Below are positions 1 through 13,719 of a stretch of DNA of 13,719 nucleotides, piece by piece. Positions within the stretch are counted from its first letter, which is position 1. Each line of letters starts with the position of its first letter. Position numbers and translations under genes: made by a program. This DNA is from a virus, in IMG/VR virus record IMGVR_UViG_3300045988_070799, positions 1 through 13,719 of that record, one strand, 5' to 3'. Under the pieces are notes generated by a model. The model saw only the letters and a list, made by a program, of their open reading frames with translations, did no database searches and was not told the origin of the DNA.

Positions 1-104
1 TATTCCTGTAATAAAAAAATAATTGTCATTTCCCCACCGTCTGCGAGTTAGTTATAACTATCTGCCTATTAGTCAACCCTAACTCACTTATAAACAACAT
101 TCAA

Positions 105-124
105 TATATAACGTCTGTTATATA
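105..124. promoter_or_regulatory. Perfect 8-bp inverted repeat TATATAAC-gtct-GTTATATA inside the ITR (mirror copy 13596-13615); candidate operator or origin-binding site
   Basis: The palindrome is read directly from the sequence. Related motifs occur nearby: AGTTATAACT (50-59, a 10-bp palindrome), GTTAAC (133-138) and ACTGTTAGT / ACTAACAGT (142-150 / 175-183). Confidence 0.4.
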
Positions 125-186
125 ACGCATTTGTTAACTCAACTGTTAGTAGAAAAAATTCGTCCTCAAAATCAACTAACAGTATC

Positions 187-215
187 TTCACAATAGCCGT
201 TGAACGTGCTATTAT
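187..215 (+). promoter_or_regulatory. Candidate sigma-A/sigma-70 promoter inside ITR-L, facing inward
   Basis: The -35 is TTCACA (187-192), followed by a 17-nt spacer and an extended -10 TGcTATTAT (207-215). It lies about 50 nt upstream of the first ATG (269). Confidence 0.5.
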
Positions 216-268
216 ATACTTGTAAAGAGGAAGGAAACCTCACAAACCAGAAAGGGGAATGTTGCAAC

Positions 269-511
269 ATGAATAAATCAATTATAACACGCGAAGGCTG
301 GCACGTCACAAATGATGGCTTTCGCTACTATATTAAAGGTGGAAGAATCATTTACGGAGTTGTAAATGCCGAGGACGGCTCTGAAATTCGGGTGTTTCAA
401 TACAAGGTTCGACGTACAAAGAGCGGAAAAGTTTTTGACTACAAACGCGTTACACCACTTGCCCGTTATTATAATTTAACCCGCTACGTTTGGAGTCCAT
501 TTTTTGTTTGA
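269..511 (+). CDS. Hypothetical small basic protein (80 aa), first gene of the left arm
   Basis: The ATG at 269 follows the ITR-encoded SD AAAGGGGA (251-258). The ORF track extends the ORF to TTG 200, which lies inside the ITR promoter, so I trimmed it. I recognise no domain. Confidence 0.55.
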   Translation: MNKSIITREGWHVTNDGFRYYIKGGRIIYGVVNAEDGSEIRVFQYKVRRTKSGKVFDYKRVTPLARYYNLTRYVWSPFFV

Positions 512-524
512 AGGAGGGAACAAA

Positions 525-581
525 ATGTTGCTAACAGTAATCATGCTTGTAATTCTTGTAACATGGGGGTTGCAACAATGA
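525..581 (+). CDS. Candidate 18-aa hydrophobic micropeptide (MLLTVIMLVILVTWGLQQ)
   Basis: A consensus SD AAGGAGG (511-517) sits 7 nt upstream of ATG 525. The stop TGA (579-581) overlaps the ATG (578-580) of the next gene as ATGA. The ORF is below the ORF-track size cutoff. Confidence 0.35.
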   Translation: MLLTVIMLVILVTWGLQQ

Positions 582-763
582 ACAATAGAAAACGTCGATA
601 TAAAGTGATAACGATATCCATGTATCCTGAAGACTTGATGCGACTAAAAGAAATTTGCGACATTACGAGAGTGGGCAATCTTTCAAAAACTGCTCGTCTC
701 TGTATTAAAACCGTTTACAACGAATTGACAAGAAGGGGCCTTATAAATGGCAAGGTGGAATAA
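578..763 (+). CDS. Ribbon-helix-helix (Arc/MetJ/CopG-like) DNA-binding protein, putative transcriptional regulator
   Basis: The sequence MNNRKRRYKVITISMYPEDLMRLKEICD...NLSKTARLCIKTVY shows a basic N-terminus, a short beta strand and two helices, which is typical of RHH proteins. GGGGG (565-569) lies 8 nt before ATG 578. Confidence 0.6.
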   Translation: MNNRKRRYKVITISMYPEDLMRLKEICDITRVGNLSKTARLCIKTVYNELTRRGLINGKVE

Positions 764-1448
764 ACGATTCGCGCAAAGCACGGCGCTTGAAAATCGCCCG
801 CTTCCAGCGTCTGTATATGTAGGTACAAAAATTCCAAAAGCTGGGTTAACGCTAAAAGATGTTAAAAAAGAAATGAAGGCGCTTATAGATTTAATGGATA
901 AGCGCTTTAAGGCGGCACGGAAAAAGGGGGTTGAGTACGAAAGCATTAAACAGTATGAGCGCCATTATTGGGATAAACCATCCACCGTGCGGACGGTGGA
1001 GGAAGGCGTTCGGCAGATTCGCGCAATGTGGAAAGTGGTTAGTGGTACAAAAACTCCACAGAAATTATTTGCGGCACAACAAAACCAGTGGAAACGCGAA
1101 TATGAAACACTTTTACAGCGTGGATGGTTTACAGAAGAAACATTTACATATGAGGATTTTCTGCAATTCAGAAAATTTTTTGCCGTTTATTCCGACGCGA
1201 ATAAAGAAGCACAATATTATTACATCCTGCAAGATATAGTTGATATATCACAGGAGGGAACCACAAGGGTTAAGCGGAAATTCGCCAAATCGGACTGGGA
1301 GGACTTGTTAAAGAGGTGGGACTATTGGCAGCGTCAAGCGGATAAAGCACGGGCGCGATATAAAGAACGGCTTAAAGCAGGGGAATTTGTGAGCGGTTCA
1401 ACGGTTCGCGCAATGTTTGAAAAAGCCAAAAGAGAAGGGAATATTTAG
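747..1448 (+). CDS. Candidate terminal protein (TP) for protein-primed replication, 233 aa
   Basis: The gene lies immediately upstream of the protein-primed polB gene and is co-oriented with it, with a 2-nt gap. This matches the arrangement in phi29 (gp3-gp2), Cp-1 and PRD1. The protein is basic and helical, of TP-like size, and the genome has ITRs. The call rests on synteny and size only, because I recognise no sequence motif. The SD is AAGGGG (733-738). Confidence 0.55.
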   Translation: MARWNKRFAQSTALENRPLPASVYVGTKIPKAGLTLKDVKKEMKALIDLMDKRFKAARKKGVEYESIKQYERHYWDKPSTVRTVEEGVRQIRAMWKVVSGTKTPQKLFAAQQNQWKREYETLLQRGWFTEETFTYEDFLQFRKFFAVYSDANKEAQYYYILQDIVDISQEGTTRVKRKFAKSDWEDLLKRWDYWQRQADKARARYKERLKAGEFVSGSTVRAMFEKAKREGNI

Positions 1449-1450
1449 GA

Positions 1451-3466
1451 ATGTTCAGCGTATATGATGGCATTCAAAAAATAACGGCATTAACGCCTGA
1501 TAATCCACGGGCTAAAATTATATACGCTGATGCGCTGATGGCGTTTGACATTGAAACAACCCGGCTTGACGATGACAATGCCATAATGTACATCTGGCAA
1601 TGCGGGCTTTATGTAGGCGGAGAATACTATATCACATATGGGAGAACGTGGGAAGAATGGACTGCATTACAGGAAGCCTTAAATGCGCGACTGGGCGGAA
1701 TTACAATAATTTGTCTTGTTCATAATCTCTCATATGAGTTCCAATTTCTTGCAGGACTTTATGAATTTTCTGACGTTAAGTGCCTTAAAGCTCGAAAAAT
1801 ACTCTCTGCGACATGCGGTTGCATTGAATATCGTTGTTCCTACATCTGGACAAATAAAACGCTTTCAAAATTTCTGAAGGAAATGAATGTCCAGCACATG
1901 AAGAAGTCAGGAGCGGAATTTGACTATTCTAAAATCCGCTATCCGTGGACTGAACTTTCAGAAGCGGAGATTGAATATTGCCAAAATGACGTTATTGGAC
2001 TGCTTGAAGCTGCCGAAAAGAAGATTCTGCAAGATGGCGACACTCTTTATTCAGTTCCGCGCACATCTACGGGTTACGTCCGCCGGGATGCAAAACAAGC
2101 GTTAAGCCAAACACCACTCGGGGCGCTTAAACCCACAGAAGAAATTTATAGAAAACTGCGGAAGGCATTTCGTGGCGGAAACACGCACGCAAACCGTTAT
2201 TTTGTTGGCAAGGTTCTCTCCGGGGTGCAGTCCGTTGACCGTTCATCAAGTTATCCCGATGTGATGTTAAATCAGAAATTTCCGATGAAAGCATTCAAAA
2301 AATGCCCTGACGGAATCGCAACTATAAGGCGGGCGTTTGCATCTGGGCTTGCAATTCTTTGCACGATGAGCATAACAGGCGCGGCCCTGCGCAATCCGTT
2401 GTGGGGGTGCCCTTATATCCCTGTTAGCAAATGCCAAATGCTTATAAATCCTTTGGAAGATAACGGGCGTGTTCTTGAAGCGGATGCACTGACGATTGAA
2501 GTAACAGAAGTGGATATGCAGATAATTTTAGAAGAATATGACGGCGAATTCGATTTTACAGATATTTACACGGCAGAGAAGGACTATTTACCCAAGCCGT
2601 TTACTGATTGTATAAAACGCTACTACACAAACAAAACCAAACTTAAAGGCATTGAAGGGAGTGAATATGAATACATGAAAAGTAAGAATTTGTTAAATAG
2701 TCTGTACGGGATGACGGCGACAGACCCTGGAAAAGATGATATTATATTTGACGGCGACGAATATATTCAGCAGGAAACAGACGTAATTAAAAATATCAAA
2801 AAATCATTCCTTCCGTATCAATGGGGCGTATGGGTTACAGCGTACGCAAGGCTTGAGTTGGAAGAAATGATAAAGATTGCAGGGAATAATTTTGTTTATG
2901 CCGATACGGATAGCTGTAAATATATAAAATCAGCATCAATTAGTTACGAATCCTATAATAATAGATGCAAAACAATGTCACTTGAGCATGAGGCGTTTGC
3001 CGTAGACCCCCACGGAACATTTCATTACATGGGCGTTGCAGAAACAGAGGGTGAATATTTCCAGTTTTTAACATGGGGGGCGAAAAAATATGCTTCACAG
3101 GATGAACAGGGGCATATAAATATAACTATCGCAGGTGTGCGCAAAAATTCCACCAAAAATGCAGCTGGTGACATTGTGGAGTGGGGTGGTGCTGATGAAC
3201 TGGAAGAAGCAGGAGGACTTGTAAAATTCGCTCCCGGTTTTGTTTTCCGAAAAGCTGGGGGGCTTGAAAGCGTTTACAACGACCATGTATCGAAGACAAT
3301 TAGTATTGATGGGCACGAGTTACAAATAACAAGAAACGTATGTTTACGCCCTTCAACCTATGCAGTAGGAATTACATATAAATATGCGGACTTGCTCGAA
3401 GCGTTGAATAACACTTATATAAGTCTTGACGCTGACAGGAATGTGTGCTATAATCTTATTAGGTGA
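1451..3466 (+). CDS. Protein-primed family B DNA polymerase (phi29 gp2-like)
   Basis: The exonuclease motifs are present: ExoI FDIETT, ExoII HNLSYEFQF and ExoIII YCQNDVIGL. AFRGGNTH is followed by motif A VDRSSSYPDVM, then motif B KNLLNSLYGMTA, motif C VYADTDS (nt 2897-2914) and KxY GAKKYA. All occur in the canonical order. Confidence 0.97.
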   Translation: MFSVYDGIQKITALTPDNPRAKIIYADALMAFDIETTRLDDDNAIMYIWQCGLYVGGEYYITYGRTWEEWTALQEALNARLGGITIICLVHNLSYEFQFLAGLYEFSDVKCLKARKILSATCGCIEYRCSYIWTNKTLSKFLKEMNVQHMKKSGAEFDYSKIRYPWTELSEAEIEYCQNDVIGLLEAAEKKILQDGDTLYSVPRTSTGYVRRDAKQALSQTPLGALKPTEEIYRKLRKAFRGGNTHANRYFVGKVLSGVQSVDRSSSYPDVMLNQKFPMKAFKKCPDGIATIRRAFASGLAILCTMSITGAALRNPLWGCPYIPVSKCQMLINPLEDNGRVLEADALTIEVTEVDMQIILEEYDGEFDFTDIYTAEKDYLPKPFTDCIKRYYTNKTKLKGIEGSEYEYMKSKNLLNSLYGMTATDPGKDDIIFDGDEYIQQETDVIKNIKKSFLPYQWGVWVTAYARLELEEMIKIAGNNFVYADTDSCKYIKSASISYESYNNRCKTMSLEHEAFAVDPHGTFHYMGVAETEGEYFQFLTWGAKKYASQDEQGHINITIAGVRKNSTKNAAGDIVEWGGADELEEAGGLVKFAPGFVFRKAGGLESVYNDHVSKTISIDGHELQITRNVCLRPSTYAVGITYKYADLLEALNNTYISLDADRNVCYNLIR

Positions 3467-3498
3467 TAAATGCCGAACAAATATTAGGAGGGTTCATC

Positions 3499-3849
3499 AT
3501 GAGTAACACGAAGACTAACCAGAGTATTTCCCCGGCGGAACTGTATAAGCTGACGCTTTCTCGTGAAGGGCATACGATGTCGGAGTTGATGTCGAAGACT
3601 GTGCGCGTTGATGCATGGGCGGTCACAGAAACGGTTGACAGTAACGGCGAATTTAAGCCTCGTTGCGGAATTATCGTTGACGGTGTGGCCTATATCACGA
3701 ATGGTAGAGCGTTCAGTGAACGGCTTCTTTCCATTGTTGAATATCTTTGTACGGCTGGGATGGACGATGCCGGGTTCAAATTGCAGGTTACTAAGATTCG
3801 GAGCAAGAATAACCGCGATTATACGTCTTGCGAATTGATTTTCGAGTGA
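3499..3849 (+). CDS. Candidate single-stranded DNA-binding protein (phi29 gp5-like), 116 aa
   Basis: AGGAGG (3487-3492) lies 6 nt before ATG 3499. The protein is colinear with my recollection of phi29 gp5 (DG..Y......E....IV.L.....FK.QV....SKNN..Y.S.EL). Its size and its position beside the polymerase also fit. This needs HHpred confirmation. Confidence 0.45.
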   Translation: MSNTKTNQSISPAELYKLTLSREGHTMSELMSKTVRVDAWAVTETVDSNGEFKPRCGIIVDGVAYITNGRAFSERLLSIVEYLCTAGMDDAGFKLQVTKIRSKNNRDYTSCELIFE

Positions 3850-3856
3850 CGCATAT

Positions 3857-3886
3857 AGGCAGGGCGAGAACCCTGCCTTTATTTTT
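3857..3886 (+). terminator. Rho-independent terminator after the replication module
   Basis: The stem pairs AGGCAGGG (3857-3864) with CCCTGCCT (3871-3878) around a 6-nt loop. It is followed by the run TTTATTTTT. Confidence 0.8.
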
Positions 3887-3897
3887 AGGAGGGGTGT

Positions 3898-4917
3898 ATG
3901 AATAACTTATTTTTAGAAAACGGCTACGTTGATATGGCGCGAATAATAGAACAAAAATACCCATTTATTCTTATGACGGGTGCAAGAGGGACGGGAAAGA
4001 CTTACGGTGCAATTAAATATGTGATTGAACATAAGATGAAATTTATTTATATGAGACGAACAAAACTGCAAGCGGATGTTATTAGCTCCCCCGAAATGTC
4101 ACCATTCGCACCAGTATGCGAAGATATGAGTATGGCTCTTGAAATGGATAAAGTTTCTAAAGAAGCTACTGCCGTATATATCAATGAGGAAAGTACCCCC
4201 GCTGGCTATGTTATGGCGCTGTCCGGTGTTTCAAATATTCGAGGGTTTTCCGCACATGATATTGAAATTATCATATTTGATGAATTTATACCGGAATCGC
4301 ACGAACGAAGAATAAAAAATGAAGGGGATGCATTTTTTAACGCCTACGAGACAATAAACAGAAACAGGGAGTTGCAAGGTAAGCCGCCCGTGAAGTGTTT
4401 ATGCCTTGCCAATAGCAACAGCATTGTAAACCCGATTTTCCAGAGTTTAGGGCTTATTACGATTGCATACAAAATGGCGGAGCAGGAAACGCAGGAATAC
4501 AAAAACGGTGAGCGCGGATTGTATCTAATAAACTTGCGCAATAGCCCTATTAGCCGAAAGAAGGGAGAAACTGCGCTTTATCGACTTCTAAAGGATAATA
4601 AAATAAAAGATATGTCGCTGGAAAATCGCTTTTTGGATAAACCAGTATTGCAGACCATGAGCGCGAACCTAAAAGAGTATACGCCACTTGTAACGTGTGG
4701 AGAAATTACAGTTTATCGGCACAAGAGTAACCGAACATATTATATTAGCCCGCATGGGCAAGGAACGCGCCCGATATACAGTACTACGGAAAATGATTGT
4801 TTACGATTCCGCACGCTTTATCGATATCTGATGCTGGCATACATTGAACGCAAAATATACTGTGAATCCCCTGCTTGCGAAATTGTTTTTTGCCAATATT
4901 TCGGGATAGTTAAATAA
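3898..4917 (+). CDS. DNA encapsidation (packaging) ATPase, phi29 gp16-like
   Basis: Walker A is GARGTGKT (nt 3979-4002) and Walker B is IIIFDEF. The blocks FIYMRRTK, TINRNRE and CLCLANSNSIVNPIF match phi29 gp16 blocks GARGIGKSY, FIYVRRYK, IVFDEFI, FRNRE and CICLSNAVSVVNPYF. The SD is AGGAGGGG. Confidence 0.9.
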   Translation: MNNLFLENGYVDMARIIEQKYPFILMTGARGTGKTYGAIKYVIEHKMKFIYMRRTKLQADVISSPEMSPFAPVCEDMSMALEMDKVSKEATAVYINEESTPAGYVMALSGVSNIRGFSAHDIEIIIFDEFIPESHERRIKNEGDAFFNAYETINRNRELQGKPPVKCLCLANSNSIVNPIFQSLGLITIAYKMAEQETQEYKNGERGLYLINLRNSPISRKKGETALYRLLKDNKIKDMSLENRFLDKPVLQTMSANLKEYTPLVTCGEITVYRHKSNRTYYISPHGQGTRPIYSTTENDCLRFRTLYRYLMLAYIERKIYCESPACEIVFCQYFGIVK

Positions 4918-4920
4918 GCC

Positions 4921-4949
4921 TTGACAAATATAAAAAATTATGATATATT
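4921..4949 (+). promoter_or_regulatory. Near-consensus sigma-A promoter (candidate late or lysis-capsid promoter)
   Basis: The -35 is TTGACA (4921-4926), followed by a 17-nt spacer and an extended -10 TGaTATATT (4941-4949). Confidence 0.65.
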
Positions 4950-4955
4950 AAAATC

Positions 4956-5044
4956 AGCAATAGGGAAGCTCGAACGACAACCCCGGAAGGGTGAGCACGG
5001 CATAGTCGTATGCCCAGACCCCTATTGCTATTTGTTTCCGGGGA
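4956..5044 (+). promoter_or_regulatory. Structured roughly 90-nt leader or candidate small RNA downstream of the consensus promoter
   Basis: A 10-bp helix pairs 4956-4965 (AGCAATAGGG) with 5020-5029 (CCCTATTGCT). An inner hairpin is GGCATA-gtcg-TATGCC (4999-5014). CCCCGGA (4981-4987) is complementary to TCCGGGG (5038-5044), which gives a pseudoknot-type topology. The region has no convincing ORF. Confidence 0.45.
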
Positions 5045-5059
5045 GACAGGGGGATATAT

Positions 5060-5254
5060 ATGGAAATCTCCGATATTGTTACGCTAATCACGAATGTAGG
5101 TTTTCCGATTGCGTGTACTTGTGCACTTTTCTATTTTTGGAATAAGGAGCGCGAACAGCACCGGGAAGAAACAGTGGAATTGAAGGATGCTATCAATAAT
5201 AATACGATTGTAATGCAGCACCTCATTGATAGGTTTGGCGGTGATGAAAATTGA
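5060..5254 (+). CDS. Small membrane protein, YvrJ-like; putative holin
   Basis: The 64-aa protein has a single N-terminal transmembrane segment containing the NVGFPI motif that I associate with the YvrJ family, and a charged C-terminal tail. The SD AGGGGGA precedes the start. The stop overlaps the start of the downstream NlpC/P60 gene as TTGA. Confidence 0.55.
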   Translation: MEISDIVTLITNVGFPIACTCALFYFWNKEREQHREETVELKDAINNNTIVMQHLIDRFGGDEN

Positions 5255-5754
5255 TTGCGGCAGAATGGGCGGAAAAAATCAGTGCAAACCGTGTAGATTT
5301 AATCGGCATTCCGTATACATCACTTGATTGTCAGGCATTTGTCGAATTTTGCCTGAAAAAATACGCGGGAATCTCCAAAAACTGGCGCGGCTCAAATGAT
5401 ATGTGGCGCAACGCTGTGCATGATAAATCCGAAAATTTTGATAATGTCGATGTAGGAGAATGGGTATTCTCCATCAAACATGATGGAAACGAGCCAAAGC
5501 GCTATACCGATGGAGTGAATGCATCACATGTTGGCATCTACATCGGAAACGGAGAAGTTATTCACTCGACGACGGGCGGCGTGCAGATGGACAAAATTGA
5601 CAATAGAAAGCGGTGGACACATCACGCAAAGGCTAATTGCTTATACTATGCCTCTGAGGTTGTCAACACGCCTGTGCCGGATGAGAACGAACTATATTCT
5701 AACCTATACGGCGAACTTGTCACACTTGTAAATAAATATGGAGGTAACAAATAA
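5251..5754 (+). CDS. NlpC/P60-family cell-wall endopeptidase, putative endolysin
   Basis: The catalytic Cys context is YTSLDCQAFV and the His context is SHVGIYIGNGEVIHS. The start is TTG; the next in-frame Met would delete the catalytic Cys. The gene is adjacent to the holin-like gene. Confidence 0.85.
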   Translation: MIAAEWAEKISANRVDLIGIPYTSLDCQAFVEFCLKKYAGISKNWRGSNDMWRNAVHDKSENFDNVDVGEWVFSIKHDGNEPKRYTDGVNASHVGIYIGNGEVIHSTTGGVQMDKIDNRKRWTHHAKANCLYYASEVVNTPVPDENELYSNLYGELVTLVNKYGGNK

Positions 5755-6080
5755 TGAATGTATCTGACATTTTGACTCTGGCAAAAGCAGGCTTCACCGC
5801 TGAACAGATTGTGAAGCTGATGCAGATTGGTGCACCAGCACCGGCACCAGCACCGGCACCAGCACCGGAACCAGCATCTGCACCGGCACCAGCATCTGCA
5901 CCAGCATCTGCACCGGCACCAGCACCGGATAATACACAGGCGCAGTTTGACAAGGTTTTCCAGCAAATCGCAAACCTTACTGGAATTGTGCAGAAGGGCA
6001 ATTTACAGAATACACACGTTGACAATAGCAAGACGTTGACCGCGGAGGATGTTCTTTCGGAAATCATTCGCCCGAACTAA
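5754..6080 (+). CDS. Putative scaffolding protein with a central Ala-Pro linker
   Basis: The 108-aa protein lies directly upstream of the capsid gene, as phi29 gp7 precedes gp8. It has an N-terminal helix-hairpin motif LAKAGFTAEQIVKLM, which is common in Firmicute phage scaffolds, a 32-residue (AP)n-type linker, and a helical C-terminus. GGAGG lies 9 nt upstream of the ATG. Confidence 0.5.
   Translation: MNVSDILTLAKAGFTAEQIVKLMQIGAPAPAPAPAPAPEPASAPAPASAPASAPAPAPDNTQAQFDKVFQQIANLTGIVQKGNLQNTHVDNSKTLTAEDVLSEIIRPN
5832..5927 (+). repeat. Imperfect tandem repeat of 6-nt GCACCR units (with GCATCT/GAACCA variants) encoding APAPAPAPAPAPEPASAPAPASAPASAPAPAP
   Basis: The repeat is read directly from the sequence. 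It opens spurious ORFs in several frames on both strands. Confidence 0.9.
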
Positions 6081-6095
6081 TGGAGGTGTTAAAAT

Positions 6096-7271
6096 TTGGC
6101 TAACACGTTGACAATTGATAAGATTAGCACCCTGCTTAAAGCAGTTCTAAAGGATGCTACAGGGCAGGATACCGCAGCACTCGACACAAAGCAACTTTTG
6201 ACGCTCGGGCAGAAGACGTTGAAAACGGGCGCTGATCCTGTGATGAACGCAATTTCGCAGATGCTTTCGCGAACAATTTTTTCCAGTCGTCCCTATAAAG
6301 CGAAGTTTGAGGGTATGCGCCTTAGTGATGAGCAGTGGGGGAACTGGGTGCGAAAAATCAAAACAATCGACGACCCGGACGACCTGACCGATAATCCTTA
6401 CTGTGATTTGACAGACGGCCAGAGCGTTGACCAGTACACGATTCATAAGCCGAAGGTTGCGCAGTTTAACTTCTACGGGCAGCAAAGCTACGAATATGAA
6501 AAAACAATTTTTGAAACGCAGCTGAACACGGCGTTCAATTCTGCGGAAGATTTCGGTGCATTTATTTCGATGATTCTTACAAATATGAATAACAAAATCG
6601 AGAAGACGCACGAGGAAACCGCGCGCGCGACCGTTGCGGGGTTTGCCGCTGGCAAGATTGCACAGAAATCCGATGTTATTCATCTGCTGACTGAGTACAA
6701 CACCGTTACAGGGCTGGAATTGACTGCTACAACCGTTATGCAGCCAGCCAACTATAAAGCGTTCACACAGTGGGCGTTTTCTCGGCTTGCTAACCTGTCC
6801 GACATGCTGACAGAATATTCCAGCTTGTATCAGACCAATAGCGCGGATGGTGTATTCCTACAGCACAGCCCGAAGTCCGCACAGCGTGTATATCTTAACT
6901 CCATGTTTATGCATCAAACAAACATGATGGCGCTTGCGGATACGTACCACGACAATTTCCTTCGCATGGCGGGTGATGTTGAATATGTCAATTACTGGCA
7001 GATTATGACCGACCCACAGAAAATCAATGTTGTAAAGCCTCAGTACCTCGCGGCTGACGGCACTATTGCAACGGCGACTGCTGACGTAAAACAGGGGAAC
7101 GTTCTAGGTATTATCTGTGACCGTGACGCATTCGGATATAGCCCGATTCTGACGCGACAGCGTGTCACGCCGCCGAATGCTAAGGGCGAATACTACAACA
7201 TTTTCTGGAAGTATAACGAGAGACACATGGTGGACTTTACCGAAAAGGGAATTGTTATCCTAATGGATTAA
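6096..7271 (+). CDS. Putative major capsid protein (391 aa)
   Basis: The gene follows the scaffold candidate and is followed by a strong hairpin. Its size is typical of small podovirus HK97-fold capsid proteins. The start is TTG, with GGAGG (6082-6086) 9 nt upstream. I recall no diagnostic motif, so the call rests on synteny. Confidence 0.6.
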   Translation: MANTLTIDKISTLLKAVLKDATGQDTAALDTKQLLTLGQKTLKTGADPVMNAISQMLSRTIFSSRPYKAKFEGMRLSDEQWGNWVRKIKTIDDPDDLTDNPYCDLTDGQSVDQYTIHKPKVAQFNFYGQQSYEYEKTIFETQLNTAFNSAEDFGAFISMILTNMNNKIEKTHEETARATVAGFAAGKIAQKSDVIHLLTEYNTVTGLELTATTVMQPANYKAFTQWAFSRLANLSDMLTEYSSLYQTNSADGVFLQHSPKSAQRVYLNSMFMHQTNMMALADTYHDNFLRMAGDVEYVNYWQIMTDPQKINVVKPQYLAADGTIATATADVKQGNVLGIICDRDAFGYSPILTRQRVTPPNAKGEYYNIFWKYNERHMVDFTEKGIVILMD

Positions 7272-7277
7272 CTTAAT

Positions 7278-7360
7278 AGTAATAGCCCTGTATTCGCACA
7301 AAAAAAACAGGCCATAAGGCGCCCAAGTTAATAACATAGCAATACAGGGCTATTACTTTT
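7278..7360 (+). terminator. Long hairpin (17-bp perfect stem, 46-nt loop) plus T-run after the capsid gene; terminator or structured RNA
   Basis: AGTAATAGCCCTGTATT (7278-7294) pairs with AATACAGGGCTATTACT (7341-7357). The stem is followed by TTTT (the last stem T plus 7358-7360). Confidence 0.6.
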
Positions 7361-7430
7361 GAGGCGATTCTGTGCGATTTTCCAGAATATGTTGGTAAAT
7401 AACTTTACCAGAAAATACAGGAGGTGCAAC

Positions 7431-8174
7431 ATGGCAGGAGATAGACAGAGAATGCCCGGCAGCAACATAGTCCCTGCTGTGGACAGCACAGCAGCCCGCT
7501 ATCCCCATTGGTACAAGCCGTTTCGGTTGCCGCAGGAGTGGTATTATAGTATATACGATGATCCATATTTTGACTATCAAGACCACGAGACAGCGAGCGA
7601 AACAAACGGCGTACTTATTGCAACTGGGCTGTATAAAAACGGATGGAAAGTCCCCCAAATAGCGGCGATGCTGGGGAATATGTGCCGGGAATCTACGCTA
7701 AATCCCGCCATATGGCAGGGCGGACACGCCCCAAGCCCTGACCCCAATAATTACAAGCAGAACACGGAAAAGAAATACGGTTTTGGGATTGTGCAGTGGA
7801 CAGGAGCAGATAAATATATAGACTGGGCGATAGAAATATTTGGAACAAATGGGGCATATGCTGGGCTTGATTGTTGGTATAACGGCAGTATCCAGATAGC
7901 GCGCATTATGTACGAGGTGGAGCATAACTATCAGTGGGAGGGCGGCACGATATACCCGGACTTTCAAGATTTTTACTTTACTGATAGTACAGATATTGAG
8001 CAGTTGACAAAAAGTTTTTGTCTTTGCTATGAACGGCCTGCCATTACGGACTGGGAAGAAACAAGCAAATATCGTATTCAATGGGCTAATTATTGGTATG
8101 ATAAATTGCAAAAAATCAATCTGAATAGCTTGCCTGTCTGGTTTATTTGCAAAGCTGCCAATAAATGGAGGTGA
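7431..8174 (+). CDS. Lysozyme-like peptidoglycan hydrolase (phage tail lysozyme type), probably virion-associated
   Basis: The motif MLGNMCRESTLNP ... YGFGIVQWTG matches the GN...ES..NP / G.G..QWT signature of phage tail lysozyme domains. AGGAGG lies 6 nt before ATG 7431. I trimmed the ORF-track start at 7359 because it has no SD. Confidence 0.7.
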   Translation: MAGDRQRMPGSNIVPAVDSTAARYPHWYKPFRLPQEWYYSIYDDPYFDYQDHETASETNGVLIATGLYKNGWKVPQIAAMLGNMCRESTLNPAIWQGGHAPSPDPNNYKQNTEKKYGFGIVQWTGADKYIDWAIEIFGTNGAYAGLDCWYNGSIQIARIMYEVEHNYQWEGGTIYPDFQDFYFTDSTDIEQLTKSFCLCYERPAITDWEETSKYRIQWANYWYDKLQKINLNSLPVWFICKAANKWR

Positions 8175-8178
8175 AAGA

Positions 8179-9630
8179 GTGGAAGCATGGTTCGCCAGAG
8201 TCGGGAAACGCAGAAATTCAACCTACGCGCCATCGGTAACATCTTATGAAGATAGTCTAAAATATGATGTTATTTTGAAGGATAATACAAATGTACAAAA
8301 TCCTGTTATAAGTTTAATCTGGTCAAATAACAGTTATACGCCAGAAAGTGTAAATTATGTATTTATTCCATTGTTTGAGCGCTACTATTTTGTGGAAAAT
8401 GTAACGTTTGAGCGGAACAGAGTATTTTTTGAATTGCGGACGGATGTATTAGCGTCTTTTTGGGGGCAGCTGAAGACGTCAACGCAATATGTTATCAGGT
8501 CTGCAAGCAAGTATAATTCACGCATTATAGATACTTCTTTGCCAATTTTGGCAAAAGGGGAAAAACAAACCTATGAAATAGATGGCACTGGCTATGTATC
8601 AGTTATGTCGGATGGATGGTATGTTGTAGGTATCATCGGGACGGAGGGTAACGCAGTTGGTGCTGTATCGTACTATGTAATGTCACAAACACAATTTACA
8701 TATTTTAGAAGTAAGTTGCTAACTGATTATAGTTATATGGGTGTAAATGCTGCAGAAATTTCGGCGGAACTGTTAAAAGCTATTGTAAATCCTTTCCAAT
8801 ATATCGTATCTTGTAGATGGTATCCTATAAAGCCTCCGACATTAGATACTTTAACAACTGTTAAGGTATCAGGCTGGGAATTGGCGGGCACTTCCGCGCG
8901 TCTGTTATCCTCGTCCACTGTTACAACAAAATCTTTTTACTGTGGCACTGGATATATTCAACAGGATGTATGGAAAAATTGTTATCCATATCGTCAAATA
9001 GCAATAAATCTTGCTCCATGGGGTTATTTTCAGGTCGACACAACTTCACTTACAAAATATGGAGAAAATATAACAATCAGGGCGTATATAGATTTTACAA
9101 CTGGAGGCTCAATCGCTTATTATCTGTGCGGAGCAGAGGCTAACAACTATCATGTTTTAGGAGTGCGAGAAGCCCAATTTGGCGTTGATATTCAGTTGGC
9201 GCAAACTGGATATGGGCAAGACATCATCTCAGTAGCCGGTAATGTCGCAGCTGGTGTAGGCGGTGTCGGCGCTGCGATTTTGGGGGATGCAAAAGCGATA
9301 AGTAGTGTATCTGATAGTATTAACAATATAGTGTCCTCAGTGTCAGACGGCTTTGGATCTGTATCCTCATTTTCGGCAAACGCCTCAATTGCAAAATATG
9401 CAATGCCGCAATATGTAGATGTTGTATATACATATACTGCGGACCAAAATGCCAAAATAAATGGGCGACCTCTCTGTGAAACAGTTAAATTGGAAAATTT
9501 ATCAGGATATACGCTTGTAAATAATCCAGACACTTCAACTATCACTTATTGTTACGGCGCGGAACGTGATGAAATAACACGCTATATGCAAACAGGATTT
9601 TACATAGAGGAGGCAGAAATCAGTGAATAA
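8179..9630 (+). CDS. Tail knob / distal tail tube protein (phi29 gp9-like)
   Basis: The N-terminal block NYVFIPLFERYYFVENVTFERNRVFFELRTDVLASFW is colinear with phi29 gp9 [43 protein letters not shown]. An internal Gly/Ala/Val/Ser-rich hydrophobic segment is present. The start is GTG, with GGAGG 7 nt upstream. Confidence 0.7.
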   Translation: MEAWFARVGKRRNSTYAPSVTSYEDSLKYDVILKDNTNVQNPVISLIWSNNSYTPESVNYVFIPLFERYYFVENVTFERNRVFFELRTDVLASFWGQLKTSTQYVIRSASKYNSRIIDTSLPILAKGEKQTYEIDGTGYVSVMSDGWYVVGIIGTEGNAVGAVSYYVMSQTQFTYFRSKLLTDYSYMGVNAAEISAELLKAIVNPFQYIVSCRWYPIKPPTLDTLTTVKVSGWELAGTSARLLSSSTVTTKSFYCGTGYIQQDVWKNCYPYRQIAINLAPWGYFQVDTTSLTKYGENITIRAYIDFTTGGSIAYYLCGAEANNYHVLGVREAQFGVDIQLAQTGYGQDIISVAGNVAAGVGGVGAAILGDAKAISSVSDSINNIVSSVSDGFGSVSSFSANASIAKYAMPQYVDVVYTYTADQNAKINGRPLCETVKLENLSGYTLVNNPDTSTITYCYGAERDEITRYMQTGFYIEEAEISE

Positions 9631-10546
9631 TCCACCCTTTGATTACAACCGCATAAATGCCTATGAATCGAGTATTTCCCCCTCTACTTGTCACACCAAA
9701 AACACCGCACTTTTCCAATACTATCAACGCTATTTATTCCAGAAACTAACAAGCCAATTTAAATGGAGCCTACCTGAAGGCTGGAGCGATACATATTTTC
9801 TCGGTTGCTTGTACGCATGGGGAAGCGTGGCGATTTTTAACAGTAAGCGTTACGGTGTAATTCCGCAGGCGGGCGCATTGTATGGATACAATGTTTTCTA
9901 TCAACCGACAACCGTGATGATTGCAAATCCCCTTTTGCCACCGATGCGATTGCAAATTGATAAGGATTGCGTTCTTTTCCGGTTGCAACGCGATTATCAC
10001 GGCGCGTTAGACATTGTTAATTATTACGCGGACTTACTTGCGACATCCGTTGAATCGCTTGCAATGAACATTATGAATTCTAAACTTTCCTATGTGTTCG
10101 CGTGCAGTTCTAAAAATGCCGCACAAACTGGCAAAGAATTAATGGACAGGGTAACATCTGGCGAGTTAGCTGTATGGGTGGATAAAGCCCTTTTTAATGA
10201 TGACGGTTCCCCCTCGTGGGCGCCATTCTCACAAAACGTAGGACAAAACTATATCGCGGACAAAATTCTTTCCAACATGAGACAAATTGAAGCAGAATTT
10301 GACACCCGCGTAGGGATTCCGACTTGTAACACCGACAAAAAAGAACGGTTGATTACAGCTGAAGCGGAACGGAACGACGTTGAAACAGACGCAATCGTTG
10401 CGCAATGGTTCGATACCATTCAGGATTGCATTCGCAACGTGCAGAATGCGTTCGGCGTGACAATCACTTGTGAGCGACGTTATCCGATTGAGCATAACAC
10501 AGATGGAGGTGTTAAGATTGAGCGTGATGTTGGCGACAATGTATAA
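9623..10546 (+). CDS. Portal / upper collar connector protein (phi29 gp10-like)
   Basis: The protein is 307 aa, whereas I recall about 309 aa for phi29 gp10. The blocks KKERLITAEAERNDVETDA, FKWSLPEG, GALYGYNVFYQPT and ITCERRY are colinear with gp10 blocks KKERMVTDEVSSNDEQIES, FEWENLPP, GALSGQRDVYNQAT and VKFRY. The start is GTG, with GAGGAGG 9 nt upstream. Confidence 0.85.
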   Translation: MNNPPFDYNRINAYESSISPSTCHTKNTALFQYYQRYLFQKLTSQFKWSLPEGWSDTYFLGCLYAWGSVAIFNSKRYGVIPQAGALYGYNVFYQPTTVMIANPLLPPMRLQIDKDCVLFRLQRDYHGALDIVNYYADLLATSVESLAMNIMNSKLSYVFACSSKNAAQTGKELMDRVTSGELAVWVDKALFNDDGSPSWAPFSQNVGQNYIADKILSNMRQIEAEFDTRVGIPTCNTDKKERLITAEAERNDVETDAIVAQWFDTIQDCIRNVQNAFGVTITCERRYPIEHNTDGGVKIERDVGDNV

Positions 10547-11111
10547 TTTTGACCCCTCTATCTTTGACGGCGTGGAATTTCCTTCTAATATATCGGTGCA
10601 AGATTTCATTGATTCTCTATTGATGCAGTGCGGAGAAATGCCTGTTCTTTATTCATCCCCACCTTTGCTTAAATCGTTAATTCTCGTATGGTCAAAAATT
10701 TCGCAATATAGCTGGGTACACCTCGCTGCAACACTAACGGCGGAATATAATCCAATAGAAAATTATGACAGAATTGAAGAATGGAAGGAAAGCACCATAA
10801 ACAATTCGCGCTATACAAATACTGTAAATAACACTTCCAGCGGCTCAACAAAAGAACAAGTTTACGGTTACAATGATTTACAAAACCCGGCGGACAATAG
10901 CGCAAGCACCAGCGCAAGCACAAGCGCGGATACAAGCGATAGTGCCGGAACTGGCACAAGTTCTGGCACGCGAAACGGGCGCACGCATGGTAACGTCGGT
11001 GTAACCACTACACAGGAAATGCTGGAAAGTGAGCGGCGGGTTGCAATGTTCAACTTCTATGACGCAGTTATTCGGGATTTCCAGAAGCGGTTTTTAATTT
11101 GGGTGTATTAA
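10518..11111 (+). CDS. Candidate lower collar / head-tail adaptor protein (gp11 position)
   Basis: The gene lies directly after the portal gene. The start is ambiguous: TTG 10518 lies 8 nt after GGAGG (10505-10509), and the alternatives are ATG 10527 or ATG 10470. The protein contains an AEYNPIENYD block and a Ser/Thr/Ala-rich low-complexity insert. The function is inferred from synteny only. Confidence 0.4.
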   Translation: MSVMLATMYNFDPSIFDGVEFPSNISVQDFIDSLLMQCGEMPVLYSSPPLLKSLILVWSKISQYSWVHLAATLTAEYNPIENYDRIEEWKESTINNSRYTNTVNNTSSGSTKEQVYGYNDLQNPADNSASTSASTSADTSDSAGTGTSSGTRNGRTHGNVGVTTTQEMLESERRVAMFNFYDAVIRDFQKRFLIWVY

Positions 11112-11127
11112 TAGGAGGTGTAGATAT

Positions 11128-12579
11128 ATGGGTATTTGGGAACAATTCCCGTTTACGAATTTCCACGAACAAAATCTTGACTGGGCTTATAAGTCAATCA
11201 AAGAACTTGATGGAAGAGTTGACACGCTGGAAAAGAGCGGTAATGTAAGCAAAGAATACGTGGACGAACAGGATGCGGCGCTTGACGAAAAAATCAGCGG
11301 CGAACGTTCCGCGCGAACAACCGCAGACCAAGCACTCCAAAATCAGATTACAGCACATACTACAAGTATTAGCGGTCTAAACGGTCGAATGGTGGAAGCT
11401 GAAAAAAACATTGGCGTCAAGCCTTCTGTGCCTAATTTCAGCAGCATTTGGAGCACAATTGGCGAATACAATGCTACACAAGCAATCGGCAGTAAATTGC
11501 TTCAAGTTCAGACGGAGGGCAAAGAAAATCATCGTTCTATTGCAGGAAGTAATGGAGTGTATGATATTACCAAGGGAACTATTCAGGCGCGTTTGAATGT
11601 GATTGAGGATGCGCTGAAACCCGGCTCACTTGTAAAGCAGAACAGCTCAGCGATTATTTCCATTCCATCAAACACTGCAAGAGGTACGCGCTTTAAGCCT
11701 TCGTCAACCGTGCCGAAGTTTGACTTTGCTATTGCAGAACGTGAAACATCCATTGATACTGATGTCGGAACTTCTGATAATATCATTCTGCTGTGTTCGC
11801 CTATTATTGATGCAGCTGGCGTACAATATAATTCGTATGAAGTGGAAGCTAATTGCAAGGGAGACAAAACGCTCGAACATATGCGTGTCCGCGTGCGAAC
11901 GTTTGTATTGGTGGCGGGAGCTTCCGGCGAGCAGTATGCAACAACATCCTATGTAGATGAAAAAACTGATCAGCTGGCAACCGAATTGGGTAACGTAGAA
12001 GCAGAAGTCAAGGATGCATATACCAAAGCGGAAACAGCCGACAACAATGCCTCAATTGCCAAGTCAACCGCAACAACGGCAGCCTCTACTGCTTCTTCTG
12101 CACTGGAAAAAATCGGCACGAAACCGGCAGAATCGAAATATAACACCCTGTGGGATACAATCGGAATCTGGTCGGAAAATGTTCCGATGGCTCTCAGAAT
12201 CAATCCCGCCTTTAATTGGAGTCAGAACAATCGTTCAGCTATCAATGGCACTTCTGATTACCCTACTGATAAAGCGCCTATCAATTCGCGCTTATCCGAT
12301 TTGGAAACAGCTATTGCCAAATTCCAGAATATGCCAAAAATTGCGAGGGGCAACGTTCTGGCATACCAAGACCAAGACACCATTATTGATTATCAGTCGG
12401 CGGGATTTACCGAAATTCCGACCGTGGTTGCGACTTATGCAAACAAGGGGGCGGTTGCGGATAGTGTAACACGCAGTCAGTTGATTTTCGCCAAAACTAC
12501 AAGCTCAGCTAAAATTAGGCTTTCCGGCACGTCGACGCATGAGCAGTTCGCCGTGGACTGGATTGCAGTTGGTGTGTAA
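11128..12579 (+). CDS. Tail fibre / receptor-binding protein with an internal tandem duplication
   Basis: The protein has an N-terminal FTNFHEQNLDWAYKSIKEL motif followed by coiled-coil heptads, which is typical of Firmicute phage fibres. It contains two colinear modules (about aa 43-266 and 274-483). The C-terminus (...FTEIPTVV...FAVDWIAVGV) resembles an H-type-lectin-like knob. It is the last gene of the structural operon. Confidence 0.6.
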   Translation: MGIWEQFPFTNFHEQNLDWAYKSIKELDGRVDTLEKSGNVSKEYVDEQDAALDEKISGERSARTTADQALQNQITAHTTSISGLNGRMVEAEKNIGVKPSVPNFSSIWSTIGEYNATQAIGSKLLQVQTEGKENHRSIAGSNGVYDITKGTIQARLNVIEDALKPGSLVKQNSSAIISIPSNTARGTRFKPSSTVPKFDFAIAERETSIDTDVGTSDNIILLCSPIIDAAGVQYNSYEVEANCKGDKTLEHMRVRVRTFVLVAGASGEQYATTSYVDEKTDQLATELGNVEAEVKDAYTKAETADNNASIAKSTATTAASTASSALEKIGTKPAESKYNTLWDTIGIWSENVPMALRINPAFNWSQNNRSAINGTSDYPTDKAPINSRLSDLETAIAKFQNMPKIARGNVLAYQDQDTIIDYQSAGFTEIPTVVATYANKGAVADSVTRSQLIFAKTTSSAKIRLSGTSTHEQFAVDWIAVGV

Positions 12580-12581
12580 CA

Positions 12582-12611
12582 ATAAAGGGAGGGCATTGCC
12601 CTCCCTTTATT
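12582..12611. terminator. Bidirectional rho-independent terminator between convergent operons
   Basis: The stem pairs AATAAAGGGAGGGC (12582-12594) with GCCCTCCCTTTATT (12598-12611) around a 3-nt loop. The arms are A/T-rich at both distal ends. The right arm contains the stop codon of the minus-strand gene. Confidence 0.85.
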
Positions 12612-12852
12612 CACCCCATGCAGTTAGATGCACGCCCCCACGAAACCTGGTTGCAACCCAGCGATACCCCCCGGCACGGCGGCGGCAATACAGCTTTGCG
12701 CACTGCACTGCGGAATCGCACTCAGTTGCGCCTTTAAGCGCCTTCAATGCCATTTTTCGCGTGTAAAAATGATACCGAAAAACATCCGCCCCATGCGCAA
12801 AAACCTCATGCCCGTCTGCATCGTAACAAACGAGTACATAATTAGTAAGCAT
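12607..12852 (-). CDS. Hypothetical protein (81 aa) with a GC-rich, Arg/Gly/Cys-rich C-terminal half
   Basis: GGGAGGA lies 7 nt upstream of ATG 12852. I trimmed the ORF-track start at 12945. This is the last gene of the right-arm operon. I recognise no domain. Confidence 0.55.
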   Translation of the reverse strand: MLTNYVLVCYDADGHEVFAHGADVFRYHFYTRKMALKALKGATECDSAVQCAKLYCRRRAGGYRWVATRFRGGVHLTAWGE

Positions 12853-13069
12853 CCATCTTCCTCCCTTTATATAATCTCTCATAGATTCGGACTTGTTCAA
12901 CTCCACAAAGCGGCTCATCGATTGAACGCGCCATAAATTCTGCACTGGTTATGCGGTTAACTATGTTGACTCCCTCCAATACTGTCCAATAGTAGTGACG
13001 TCTTGTAAAGGTGCACCCCTTGCGGTGCAAGTCTTCAATTTGAGAATGTGTTAGTCTTGCCTGTTTCAT
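12842..13069 (-). CDS. Hypothetical protein (75 aa)
   Basis: ATG 13069 lies 8 nt after AAGGGG and overlaps the stop of the upstream gene as ATGA. The GTG at 13078 is too close to the SD to be the start. Confidence 0.55.
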   Translation of the reverse strand: MKQARLTHSQIEDLHRKGCTFTRRHYYWTVLEGVNIVNRITSAEFMARSIDEPLCGVEQVRIYERLYKGRKMDAY

Positions 13070-13257
13070 TGTGAACACCCCTTCCTGCGTTCTTTCCGCT
13101 TTGCTATAATTTCAAGGGTGATAGCCCGTGCGATGGCAAGTAGAGCTTCACGTTCATATGAACTGAAACCCTTATAATTTCGATTCGTCAAGTTGCAAAT
13201 CTCAGTTAATGTTTTCGCCCGAAGAAACTGAACCGCCAGAAACCGAAAATCATTCAT
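13066..13257 (-). CDS. Hypothetical protein (63 aa), possible helix-turn-helix
   Basis: The gene overlaps its upstream neighbour by 8 nt (ATGAATGA). The segment KTLTEICNLTNRNYKGFSSYER could form an HTH, but this is weak evidence. Confidence 0.5.
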   Translation of the reverse strand: MNDFRFLAVQFLRAKTLTEICNLTNRNYKGFSSYEREALLAIARAITLEIIAKRKERRKGCSQ

Positions 13258-13456
13258 TCAACACGCCCTCAATTCGTTCAGCCCTGAGTCGCTCAACAAA
13301 CATGTCATAAAGCAGAACTTTTACTTCCGCCTGTGTTAGCTTGTCAATCTTGTAATCATAAAGAACTGCACTAATGATAGCCTCAATTTGAGCCAGCGGA
13401 ATGTGACTATATGCCTTTTGTAACCGTTCACACCATACTTCCATTCTCTCTGACAT
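13250..13456 (-). CDS. Hypothetical protein (68 aa), first gene of the right arm
   Basis: ATG 13456 lies 5 nt after the GGGG core (3 nt after the end) of the ITR-encoded SD AAAGGGGAA. The protein is helical and slightly acidic. I recognise no domain. Confidence 0.6.
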   Translation of the reverse strand: MSERMEVWCERLQKAYSHIPLAQIEAIISAVLYDYKIDKLTQAEVKVLLYDMFVERLRAERIEGVLNE

Positions 13457-13459
13457 TTC

Positions 13460-13719
13460 TTCCCCTTTCTGGTTTGTGAGGTTTTCCTTCCTCTTTACAA
13501 GTATATAATAGCACGTTCAACGGCTATTGTGAAGATACTGTTAGTTGATTTTGAGGACGAATTTTTTCTACTAACAGTTGAGTTAACAAATGCGTTATAT
13601 AACAGACGTTATATATTGAATGTTGTTTATAAGTGAGTTAGGGTTGACTAATAGGCAGATAGTTATAACTAACTCGCAGACGGTGGGGAAATGACAATTA
13701 TTTTTTTATTACAGGAATA
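13460..13719. repeat. Right inverted terminal repeat (ITR-R)
   Basis: This is the reverse complement of 1-259 with one extra T in the run 13482-13485. It ends exactly at the last base of the window. Confidence 0.97.
13505..13533 (-). promoter_or_regulatory. Identical promoter copy inside ITR-R, facing inward
   Basis: This is the mirror image of 187-215: -10 TATTAT is the reverse complement of 13505-13510, and -35 TTCACA is the reverse complement of 13528-13533. It lies upstream of the minus-strand ATG at 13456. Confidence 0.5.

Follow-up and report, generated by a model that had tools for sequence, protein, structure and literature searches.

A structured RNA behind the packaging ATPase gene of a phi29-like gut podophage as a possible compact counterpart of the phi29 prohead RNA

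In this article we describe a 74-nt RNA situated between the packaging ATPase gene and the holin gene of a small phage genome, IMG/VR record IMGVR_UViG_3300045988_070799, which was analysed over its whole length of 13,719 nt (the window in the following). The window very probably represents, but for a GGG missing from each end, the genome of a virulent phi29-like podophage of the human gut. There is little doubt that the RNA is real, structured and under selection, while its participation in DNA packaging is a tentative proposal with chances just short of even. Equally tentative, at not quite an even chance, is the general form of this proposal: a minimal prohead RNA (pRNA) of 60-78 nt, placed after the gp16-type ATPase gene, would serve the packaging motors of a broad clade of phi29-like gut phages of 11-14 kb, and pRNA would then occur beyond the Bacillus phi29 group. 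The RNA, which was missed in the original prediction made from the sequence of the window, is the one feature of possible specialist interest; the genome itself is one further species in the large, already catalogued assortment of small phi29-like phages of the gut.

Reviews confine pRNA to phi29 and its Bacillus relatives (PMC5066667, PMC11476376). In the literature that we searched, the coverage of which is incomplete, it is described in phi29 and related Bacillus phages, together with a proposal for Cp-1 (PMC5066667, PMC11476376, PMC6266182), and within the same limit no description of an RNA following the ATPase gene was found in the papers or in the RNA library. Labels such as L095 denote the related contigs and assemblies with which the window was compared; L095 itself is an independent ENA assembly of the same strain (13,491 nt, 99.99% identical).

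The RNA and its conservation

The gap of 142 nt between the stop of the ATPase gene (4917) and the start of the holin gene (5060) is occupied by a promoter, the 74-nt RNA and a U-rich tract (Table 1). The predicted fold of the RNA consists of a helix P1 of 10 bp, an arm P2 (5 bp, a 9-nt one-sided bulge, 3 bp and a GGAA loop) and a hairpin P3 of 6 bp with the loop GUCG. In close relatives the RNA is 96% identical, compared with 81-88% for the aligned genomes, and the changes among them are either compensatory or confined to the junctions. The same site in phages with a polymerase 33-43% identical to that of the window has a different sequence and the same fold, and in three sequence groups the three-way junction was predicted by RNAfold without any constraint.

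In the main groups 30-55 nt separate the ATPase stop from the start of the RNA, and 7-95 nt do so in further lineages, whose copies were parsed by hand or by a descriptor and had been missed by the covariance model described below; in L099, a contig of a metagenome-assembled genome (MAG), it lies 611 nt from the ATPase gene. A promoter-like site stands just upstream of every copy and a U-rich tract downstream of most of them. A copy was recognized in the cultured Amedibacillus phage AD70P3 as well, where it is unannotated and occupies positions 5864-5925 of L093 (the reverse complement of OP172639.1), in a gap of 123 nt after the ATPase gene. This copy begins 33 nt past that gene, has the promoter TTGACA-17-TGATATATT in front of it, and was also predicted by plain folding of the gap.

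For the covariation analysis an alignment of 20 sequences was built by hand, the register being held with N padding. Pairing was found in 99.5% of the cells that should pair, compared with 36-48% in a control in which the partners had been slid, and 19 of the 21 pairs had changes on both sides. The covariation score reached 0.779, as against 0.238 in shuffled alignments (0 of 500 attained the real value). A covariance model derived from this alignment and searched against both strands of 1.13 Mb returned 25 matches at E values up to 0.02, all of them on the strand of the ATPase gene, one per genome and at the post-ATPase site, with no match elsewhere in the searched sequence. With the filters switched off the model gave exactly five matches in 88.6 kb, including the AD70P3 copy (E 1e-4), which was outside the training set. 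An earlier model derived from close relatives only was too sequence-specific and was set aside; with the filters off it found the L014 copy alone. A hand-written descriptor proved unspecific by score, since shuffled genomes gave a top score of 47 and one real group scored 44-45, and it served for parsing only.

Comparison with prohead RNA and alternative function

In the Rfam consensus of the phi29 pRNA the elements follow each other as helix A, helix C, a 9-nt one-sided bulge, hairpin E, the junction, hairpin D and helix A again. The RNA of the window has the same order of helices and the same asymmetric bulge of 9 nt on the 5' side; thus helix A, the C-E arm with its one-sided bulge and hairpin D, which make up the prohead-RNA architecture, all have their equivalents in its fold. 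Size and location are different: the phi29 pRNA measures 118-174 nt and is encoded at the genome's left end, whereas the window RNA has 74 nt and follows the ATPase gene.

The ring on the phi29 prohead is formed by pairing of the bulge (R loop) of one molecule with the loop of hairpin D (L loop) of its neighbour (PMC4201828, PMC5066667). Complementarity between the bulge and the P3 loop could be detected here too, as ACGAC/GUCGU in the genus of the window, as AUCC/GGAU in one subgroup of the largest sequence group, L061 and AD70P3, and as GACU/AGUC in L071. Among nine representative sequences the complementary runs amount to 5, 4, 4 and 4 bp in four lineages, with different sequences, and the summed run length exceeds that of composition-preserving shuffles (P = 0.0002); pairing within one molecule and between molecules would fit this result alike. 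On the proposed model the 74-nt RNA would be a compact counterpart of the phi29 pRNA, it would link the gp16-type ATPase to the portal, and its copies might assemble into a ring through pairing of the 9-nt bulge with the hairpin loop of the neighbouring copy.

The RNA could instead be a cis-acting leader that sets how strongly the lysis and capsid genes of the late operon are expressed, either by terminating or attenuating transcription close to the promoter or by antitermination, comparable to the put RNA of HK022 or to the PR'-6S-tR' arrangement of lambda; we consider this a real possibility, with chances somewhat below even. The RNA begins at the predicted start of a strong promoter and is followed by the U-rich tract and then by the late genes, and no other promoter-like site is present in the window ahead of the holin gene. 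It therefore heads the late transcript, a position that suits a cis-acting leader equally well, and this has to be held against the packaging model together with the following results. The bulge-loop pairing is only 2-3 bp in five of the nine representatives. No match of the covariance model was obtained in phi29 or Cp-1, and no copy of the RNA turned up in the relatives of 15-16 kb, in Clostridium phage HM2 or in Acinetobacter phage Phanie, the last of which has no gap after its ATPase gene. The Rfam model RF00044 (Phage_pRNA) gave no match at E<=1 in the whole window or at E<=10 in the region 4930-5060, although it detects the pRNA of phi29 itself at 145 bits. Furthermore the pair counts lean towards the structure, because the alignment from which they come was fitted to it by hand; this concern is tempered by the independent folds and by the sequence similarity that MAFFT itself found between two of the RNA groups.

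On the other side, a simple terminator needs neither a three-way junction nor a conserved 9-nt one-sided bulge nor a bulge-loop complementarity in which both partners change together from lineage to lineage. The position after the ATPase gene is kept whatever gene comes next, a holin in this genus and a scaffold-like gene in others, and in L099 the element stands apart, at the distance given above. These phages also encode a gp16-type ATPase, and in phi29 such an ATPase requires the RNA for docking on the prohead (PMC5066667). Should the packaging model be correct, the RNA would be tied to the gp16-type motor, and it would represent the smallest natural pRNA scaffold, a much smaller natural three-way junction than those at hand. 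An RNA of the same architecture in distant phi29-like phages would make it possible to ask in a cultured system why this motor uses RNA, and also whether the RNA accompanies every gp16-type ATPase. The packaging claim can be put to the test, since AD70P3 is cultured.

Genome ends

The original prediction described the window as an entire genome bounded by inverted terminal repeats (ITRs) of 259 and 260 nt, and the comparison of 1-259 with 13460-13719 confirmed that the two ends are reverse complements from edge to edge. Positions 1-237 and 13483-13719 match exactly; past a difference of 1 nt in an A/T run another 25 bases pair up (235-259 with 13460-13484), which gives a repeat of 259 or 260 nt that reaches both edges of the window. 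A repeat of this length cannot have arisen by chance. Since the 1-nt difference is not present in L095, the repeat is probably a perfect one of 259 nt. Across the relatives it is conserved over its first ~40 nt and its last ~75 nt and varies in between.

The first bases of the window are TATTCC, and GGGTATTCC opens L002 and L003 at either end and, at the left end, L006 and L010. As four related contigs begin in this way, the window probably lacks GGG at each end, the true end being GGG followed by base 1; apart from these three bases per end the genome appears essentially complete. None of the 13 closest contigs (IMG/VR, with a polymerase 89-94% identical to that of the window) extends further outward, with the exception of 13 odd bases at the right end of L010, and the first base of L095 is base 2 of the window. 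More distant relatives start with AAAGTTAC or AAATT, that is with homopolymer triplets as in phi29. A linear genome with ITRs opening on a short homopolymer run, as expected of a phi29-like phage, is thus found in the 259-nt repeat, the GGG of four relatives and the AAA of the distant ones.

Such GGG ends are what initiation by sliding-back predicts, and they are useful for annotation. Replication would begin at both ends on a 3'-CCC template with dGMP linked to the 233-amino-acid terminal-protein candidate, and sliding-back would restore the ends; priming of this kind at both ends might be the reason why the repeats of about 260 nt are kept identical. Each repeat also carries a predicted promoter, a leader and a ribosome-binding site (RBS), and start codons follow directly after both copies (269 and 13456). 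Each copy can therefore be annotated as the promoter and leader of a terminal operon, and both terminal early operons would be driven by the same sequence.

An assembly error behind the repeats, such as a fold-back or the duplication of one end, and a molecule that runs on past the window are both extremely improbable. Short-read assemblers which collapse a repeat could also produce nearly identical copies, and several related contigs are cut symmetrically inside the repeat. Nevertheless, relatives which are 67-86% similar have their own diverged repeats of similar length, and this, together with the presence of two functional copies that supply promoter and RBS to the terminal operons, argues against a fold-back. 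The same stop at GGG in four independent contigs, the independent same-strain assembly that begins at base 2 and the 236-nt repeat of the known relative Cp-1 point in the same direction.

Some minor observations concern the repeats. Their interior contains conserved palindromes, ATATAAC...GTTATAT and CTGTTAGT...ACTAACAG, at 104-123 and 142-183 and in the mirror copies, which could be protein-binding sites. The ITR was also inspected as a location for pRNA; its hairpins have z scores of -3 to -3.7, with just 3 covarying pairs and no clear transcript. The related IMG/VR contig L017 opens with a sequence resembling an Illumina Nextera adapter (1-30, AGATCTACAC...TCGTCGGCAG), and the last 13 bases of L084, the right part of the L010 contig, overrun the shared terminus; debris left by assembly in the public entries is the probable explanation of both.

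Gene content and layout

Table 1. Features of the window. Positions are those of the 13,719-nt record; aa, amino acids.
Feature	Position	Strand	Basis or remark
Left ITR	1..259	+	presumed replication origin; first ~40 nt conserved
Promoter-like site TTCACA-17-TATTAT with TG	187..215	+	in left ITR; followed by invariant leader and RBS GAAAGGGGAA
Early gene, 80 aa	269..511	+	variable among relatives (59-81% aa identity)
Small early gene, <=66 aa	563..763	+	conserved open reading frame; no family match
Terminal-protein candidate, 233 aa	747..1448	+	position only; predicted all-helical
Family-B DNA polymerase, protein-primed type	1451..3466	+	PF03175, phrog_1907
phi29 p5-type single-stranded-DNA-binding protein, 116 aa	3499..3849	+	family profile
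Terminator-like hairpin, then T run	3857..3878	+	after replication genes
gp16-type DNA packaging ATPase, 339 aa	3898..4917	+	PF05894 at 1e-19
Near-consensus promoter TTGACA-17-TATATT with TG	4921..4949	+	ends 7 nt before RNA
Conserved 74-nt three-way-junction RNA, phi29 pRNA-like architecture	4956..5029	+	folding, covariation
U-rich tract	5030-5037	+	directly after RNA
Holin-like protein, 64 aa	5060..5254	+	direct family match
NlpC/P60 peptidoglycan hydrolase	5251..5754	+	direct family match
Scaffold candidate, 108 aa, Ala-Pro/Ala-Ser repeat	5754..6080	+	position only
phi29-type major capsid protein	6096..7271	+	PF25622 at 2e-18
Optional intergenic insert, 143 nt, with 23-bp inverted repeat	7272..7414	+	absent in four relatives
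Tail lysozyme	7431..8174	+	homologous to N-terminal domain of phi29 gp13
Tail knob, 483 aa, single unsplit gene	8179..9630	+	homologous to phi29 gp9
Portal (upper collar)	9623..10546	+	homologous to phi29 gp10; PF05352 at 2e-17
Lower collar (tail tube connector)	10518..11111	+	homologous to phi29 gp11
Tail fibre or appendage candidate, 483 aa	11128..12579	+	position and size only
Perfect 15-bp palindrome between converging operons	12581..12611	.	read as two-way terminator
Leftward operon, four small genes (81, 75, 63, 68 aa)	12607..13456	-	from right ITR promoter
Right ITR	13460..13719	-	copy of left repeat
Mirror copy of ITR promoter-like site	13505-13533	opposite	points into leftward operon

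From the left the window is made up of the repeat, early genes, the terminal-protein candidate, the polymerase, the single-stranded-DNA-binding protein (SSB), a hairpin, the ATPase, the promoter with the RNA, the holin and the endolysin; then come the scaffold, capsid, tail lysozyme, knob, portal, lower collar and fibre, a palindrome, four leftward genes and the second repeat. The replication genes would be read rightward from the left end, the four small genes leftward from the right end, and the packaging, lysis and structural genes rightward up to the two-way terminator. Eighteen genes were called on L095, and together with a conserved open reading frame (ORF) of 66 codons at 563-763 this agrees with the about 19 genes that had been counted from the sequence.

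The core set that defines phi29-like phages comprises p8, p9, p10, p11, p2 and p16 (PMC11476376); homologues of all six of these genes listed by Evseev et al. (2024) are present in the window. The homologues of the protein-primed polymerase, gp5, gp16, gp9 and gp10 named in the original prediction could all be recovered by Pfam or PHROG, profile or fold matches. The capsid and lysis genes that it listed are supported by family matches, while its scaffold and fibre remain assignments by position. It had found the head fibre and the p4/p6-type genes unrecognisable, and indeed no counterpart of the head fibre, p4, p6, gp12, gp16.7 or gp17 was detected among the proteins of the window. The scaffold, the fibre, the holin and the small early proteins have no similarity to their phi29 counterparts, and a tRNA search of the window found none.

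The polymerase matches PF03175 at 1e-15 and phrog_1907 at 4e-55, contains the motifs DRSSSYP, KNLLNSLYG and YADTDS, and is 23-24% identical to the enzymes of phi29 and Cp-1. For the SSB single-sequence searches gave no direct family match. Its family reaches proteins of 120-124 amino acids encoded after the polymerase in distant loci; 9 of the 18 members match PF17427 (Phi29_Phage_SSB, best E 6e-10), and the family profile aligns with phi29 p5 over 93 columns (hhalign, 91%, E 9e-7).

The 233-amino-acid protein encoded upstream of the polymerase may be the terminal protein. The position claimed for it is well conserved, as 78 of 80 related loci have an ORF of 165-318 amino acids that ends where the polymerase begins, and its AlphaFold model is all-helical (predicted local distance difference test score, pLDDT, 78). 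Its homologues, 42-92% identical, are all unnamed proteins on contigs of <=14 kb, and tblastn against phages gave no link to a known terminal protein. A homology or fold link to such a protein was not obtained, and the results of these searches speak against the candidate: the profile of the protein matches its positional equivalents weakly (E 5e-4 to 4e-3, probability 9-33%); sequence search of the PDB gave no link to any known terminal protein, and the model had no Foldseek match there; its profiles do not align with the terminal proteins of phi29 or Cp-1, and a profile of the positional equivalents had no link in the PDB or Pfam.

In the early region a 17-codon ORF (525-578) with its own AGGAGG RBS lies between the first two early genes and encodes a very hydrophobic peptide (MLLTVIMLVILVTWGLQQ). 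The product of 563-763, which has no match in the family libraries, has a strand-helix-helix pattern resembling ribbon-helix-helix proteins (KVITISMYPEDLMRLKEI...SKTARLCIKTVYNEL) as judged by eye only; an iterative profile for this 66-amino-acid product drifted into antisense ORFs and was discarded. In the first gene of the leftward operon (13250-13456) most relatives have an unrelated sequence instead.

Among the tail proteins, the lysozyme matches PF18013 at 2e-25 and the gp13 lysozyme domain (PDB 3CSQ, 3CSR) at 6e-16. The family profile of the lower collar matches the proximal tail tube connector of phi29 (PDB 6QZ9) at 2e-37 and the P68 lower collar at 1e-4, and its comparison with gp11 by hhalign gave 99.7%. 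No match of the knob was found in sequence searches. Its AlphaFold model, built from 67 homologues (pLDDT 81.5, with a low-confidence loop rich in Gly, Ala and Ser at residues 343-400), matched the fold of phi29 gp9 (PDB 5FB5, 5FB4) in Foldseek with E 7e-13, probability 1.0 and a template modelling (TM) score of 0.51, and had no other fold match below E 0.09. In genomes otherwise 67-86% similar the knob is either 89-92% or 34-37% identical to that of the window at the amino acid level; the swap is limited to the gene ends, the flanking lysozyme and portal being 86-97% identical. This pattern suggests cassette exchange at a host-interaction protein.

Several further observations were made in the lysis and capsid region. 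The holin occurs in two alleles among the relatives (86-92% or 59-61% identity), and the NlpC/P60 hydrolase is likely the endolysin. The Ala-Pro/Ala-Ser run of the scaffold candidate is encoded by about 8 copies of a 12-nt tandem repeat (5832-5928). The 143-nt insert fills exactly the space from the stop codon of the capsid gene to the RBS of the tail lysozyme gene. Besides the window it occurs in L001, L003, L006 and L009, and L002, L005, L010 and L013 are without it; the L006 copy has kept the stem and misses 26 nt of the loop. The insert folds strongly (z -5.1); a terminator module and a small mobile hairpin are two possible readings of it. The gap that contains it (7272-7430) was considered as a site of pRNA on account of this hairpin and was rejected as a core function, because the segment is missing in four close relatives.

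Comparison with related phages

The layout was predicted to be closer to that of Cp-1 (Salasmaviridae, Cepunavirus, 19.3 kb) than to that of phi29, and the Cp-1 record bears this out. Cp-1 has an ITR of 236 nt, compared with about 260 nt in the window; small early genes, a terminal protein of 230 amino acids (about the same length as the candidate) and then the polymerase, all rightward; rightward late genes; and, at the right end, a short early operon that runs leftward and has three ORFs in Cp-1. The differences are also considerable: the polymerase is 24% identical, there is no capsid similarity at the BLAST level, and the ATPase and lysis genes close the late operon of Cp-1 whereas both precede the capsid genes in the window. 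The ends are AAA in Cp-1 and GGG in the window.

With phi29 (Salasmaviridae, 19.3 kb) the window shares homologues of p2, p5, gp8, gp9, gp10, gp11, gp13 (N-terminal domain) and gp16. In contrast, the ITR of phi29 has 6 nt, its terminal protein and polymerase genes are leftward, and it possesses a head fibre, p4, p6 and the gp12 appendage.

The closest gene order in cultured phages was found in AD70P2 and AD70P3 (Amedibacillus, filed under Guelinviridae, 12.2-12.3 kb), which share the rank of closest cultured relative with Clostridium phage HM2 (17.5 kb, partly annotated, polymerase 33%). The shared order comprises a gene in the terminal-protein position, the polymerase, small genes, the ATPase, a small gene, capsid, knob, portal, lower collar and fibre, in addition to small genes of the opposite strand at one end and the same RNA after the ATPase gene. 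They have neither the holin and NlpC/P60 pair after the RNA nor a gp13-like gene before the knob, and the G+C content is 26.7% in AD70P2 as against about 43% in the window.

The Astrithrvirus group (Salmonella astrithr, Astrid; Pectobacterium DU_PP_III; Acinetobacter Phanie; 11.2-11.9 kb, polymerase 31-37% identical) resembles the window in a gene at the terminal-protein position followed by the polymerase, both rightward, and in short leftward genes at the right end. It differs in its Gram-negative hosts; furthermore its lower collar is shortened and its knob is divided between two genes, with Ig-like domains (PMC11476376). A helper may have to supply the tail for small phi29-like genomes whose hosts are Gram-negative (PMC11476376), and Phanie (11.9 kb), for which such helper dependence has been reported, is a distant relative of the window. 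The window could be thought of as a helper-dependent satellite-like virus, or else as a linear protein-primed plasmid with phage genes. A non-autonomous element of either kind is nevertheless very improbable: the gp9-type knob of the window is unsplit and the two-part knob with Ig-like domains of the Phanie group is absent, lower collar, tail lysozyme, fibre candidate, holin and endolysin genes are present, and no plasmid partition or maintenance genes were seen.

Relatives and classification

The original prediction regarded 13.7 kb as unusually compact and the genome as novel, and neither view could be maintained. The size is ordinary and the lineage is already sampled though uncultured, since isolates of 10.4-12.3 kb, numerous assemblies of 12-14 kb and public copies of the same strain exist. 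Among the isolates with related polymerases in the phage collection, Vibrio K58 g2, Shigella vB_SHGBLB0004, Salmonella astrithr and Astrid, Pectobacterium DU_PP_III, Enterobacter Entb_47, Acinetobacter Phanie and Amedibacillus AD70P2/P3 fall between 10.4 and 12.3 kb, and the collection also includes human-faecal records of 12.4-14.0 kb. IMG/VR contributed 114 polymerase relatives on contigs of mostly 11-16 kb. Comparable sizes have been published: more than 2000 phi29-like entries were collected by Evseev et al. (2024), many of them human-metagenome genomes of 12-14 kb (PMC11476376), and the cultured Ruminococcus albus phages phiRa02 and phiRa04 have 13.0 kb (PMC5723332, 2017). The uncultured phi29-like human-gut genomes of 12-14 kb in IMG/VR dataset 3300045988 and in GenBank (MT83xxxx) are unannotated records.

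Polymerase and capsid proteins identical to those of the window are already deposited in NCBI, IMG, ENA and Logan, its strain is represented in three assemblies at 99.99-100%, and the polymerase of GenBank MT839743 is 88% identical. A VIRIDIC-like calculation gave 67-86% similarity to 11 IMG/VR genomes, that is to different species of the same genus, and <=6% to everything else tested (phi29 0.6, Cp-1 1.2, AD70P3 1.6, Phanie 1.2). No description of this genus was met in the papers searched.

As to higher ranks, the similarity of 0.6% to phi29 and 1.2% to Cp-1, together with the polymerase identities given above, does not support a place in Salasmaviridae, and tblastn with the capsid protein found no record of this family. 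With AD70P3, filed under Guelinviridae, the polymerase is 33% and the capsid 28% identical and the gene order is the same, at a nucleotide similarity of 1.6%; the Amedibacillus and Clostridium members were placed in different clusters by Evseev et al. (PMC11476376). Astrithrvirus, which is characterized by at least 70% similarity and by a knob split in two, does not accommodate a genome with 1.2% similarity to Phanie and a single knob gene of 483 codons. The nearest phage matches of the endolysin (31-36%) belong to Bacillus and Clostridioides phages. The only hints at the host are two: a scan of GTDB with the polymerase yielded just relatives of 33-36% identity, in four Clostridia MAGs, and the knob is unsplit as in the relatives that infect Gram-positive bacteria.

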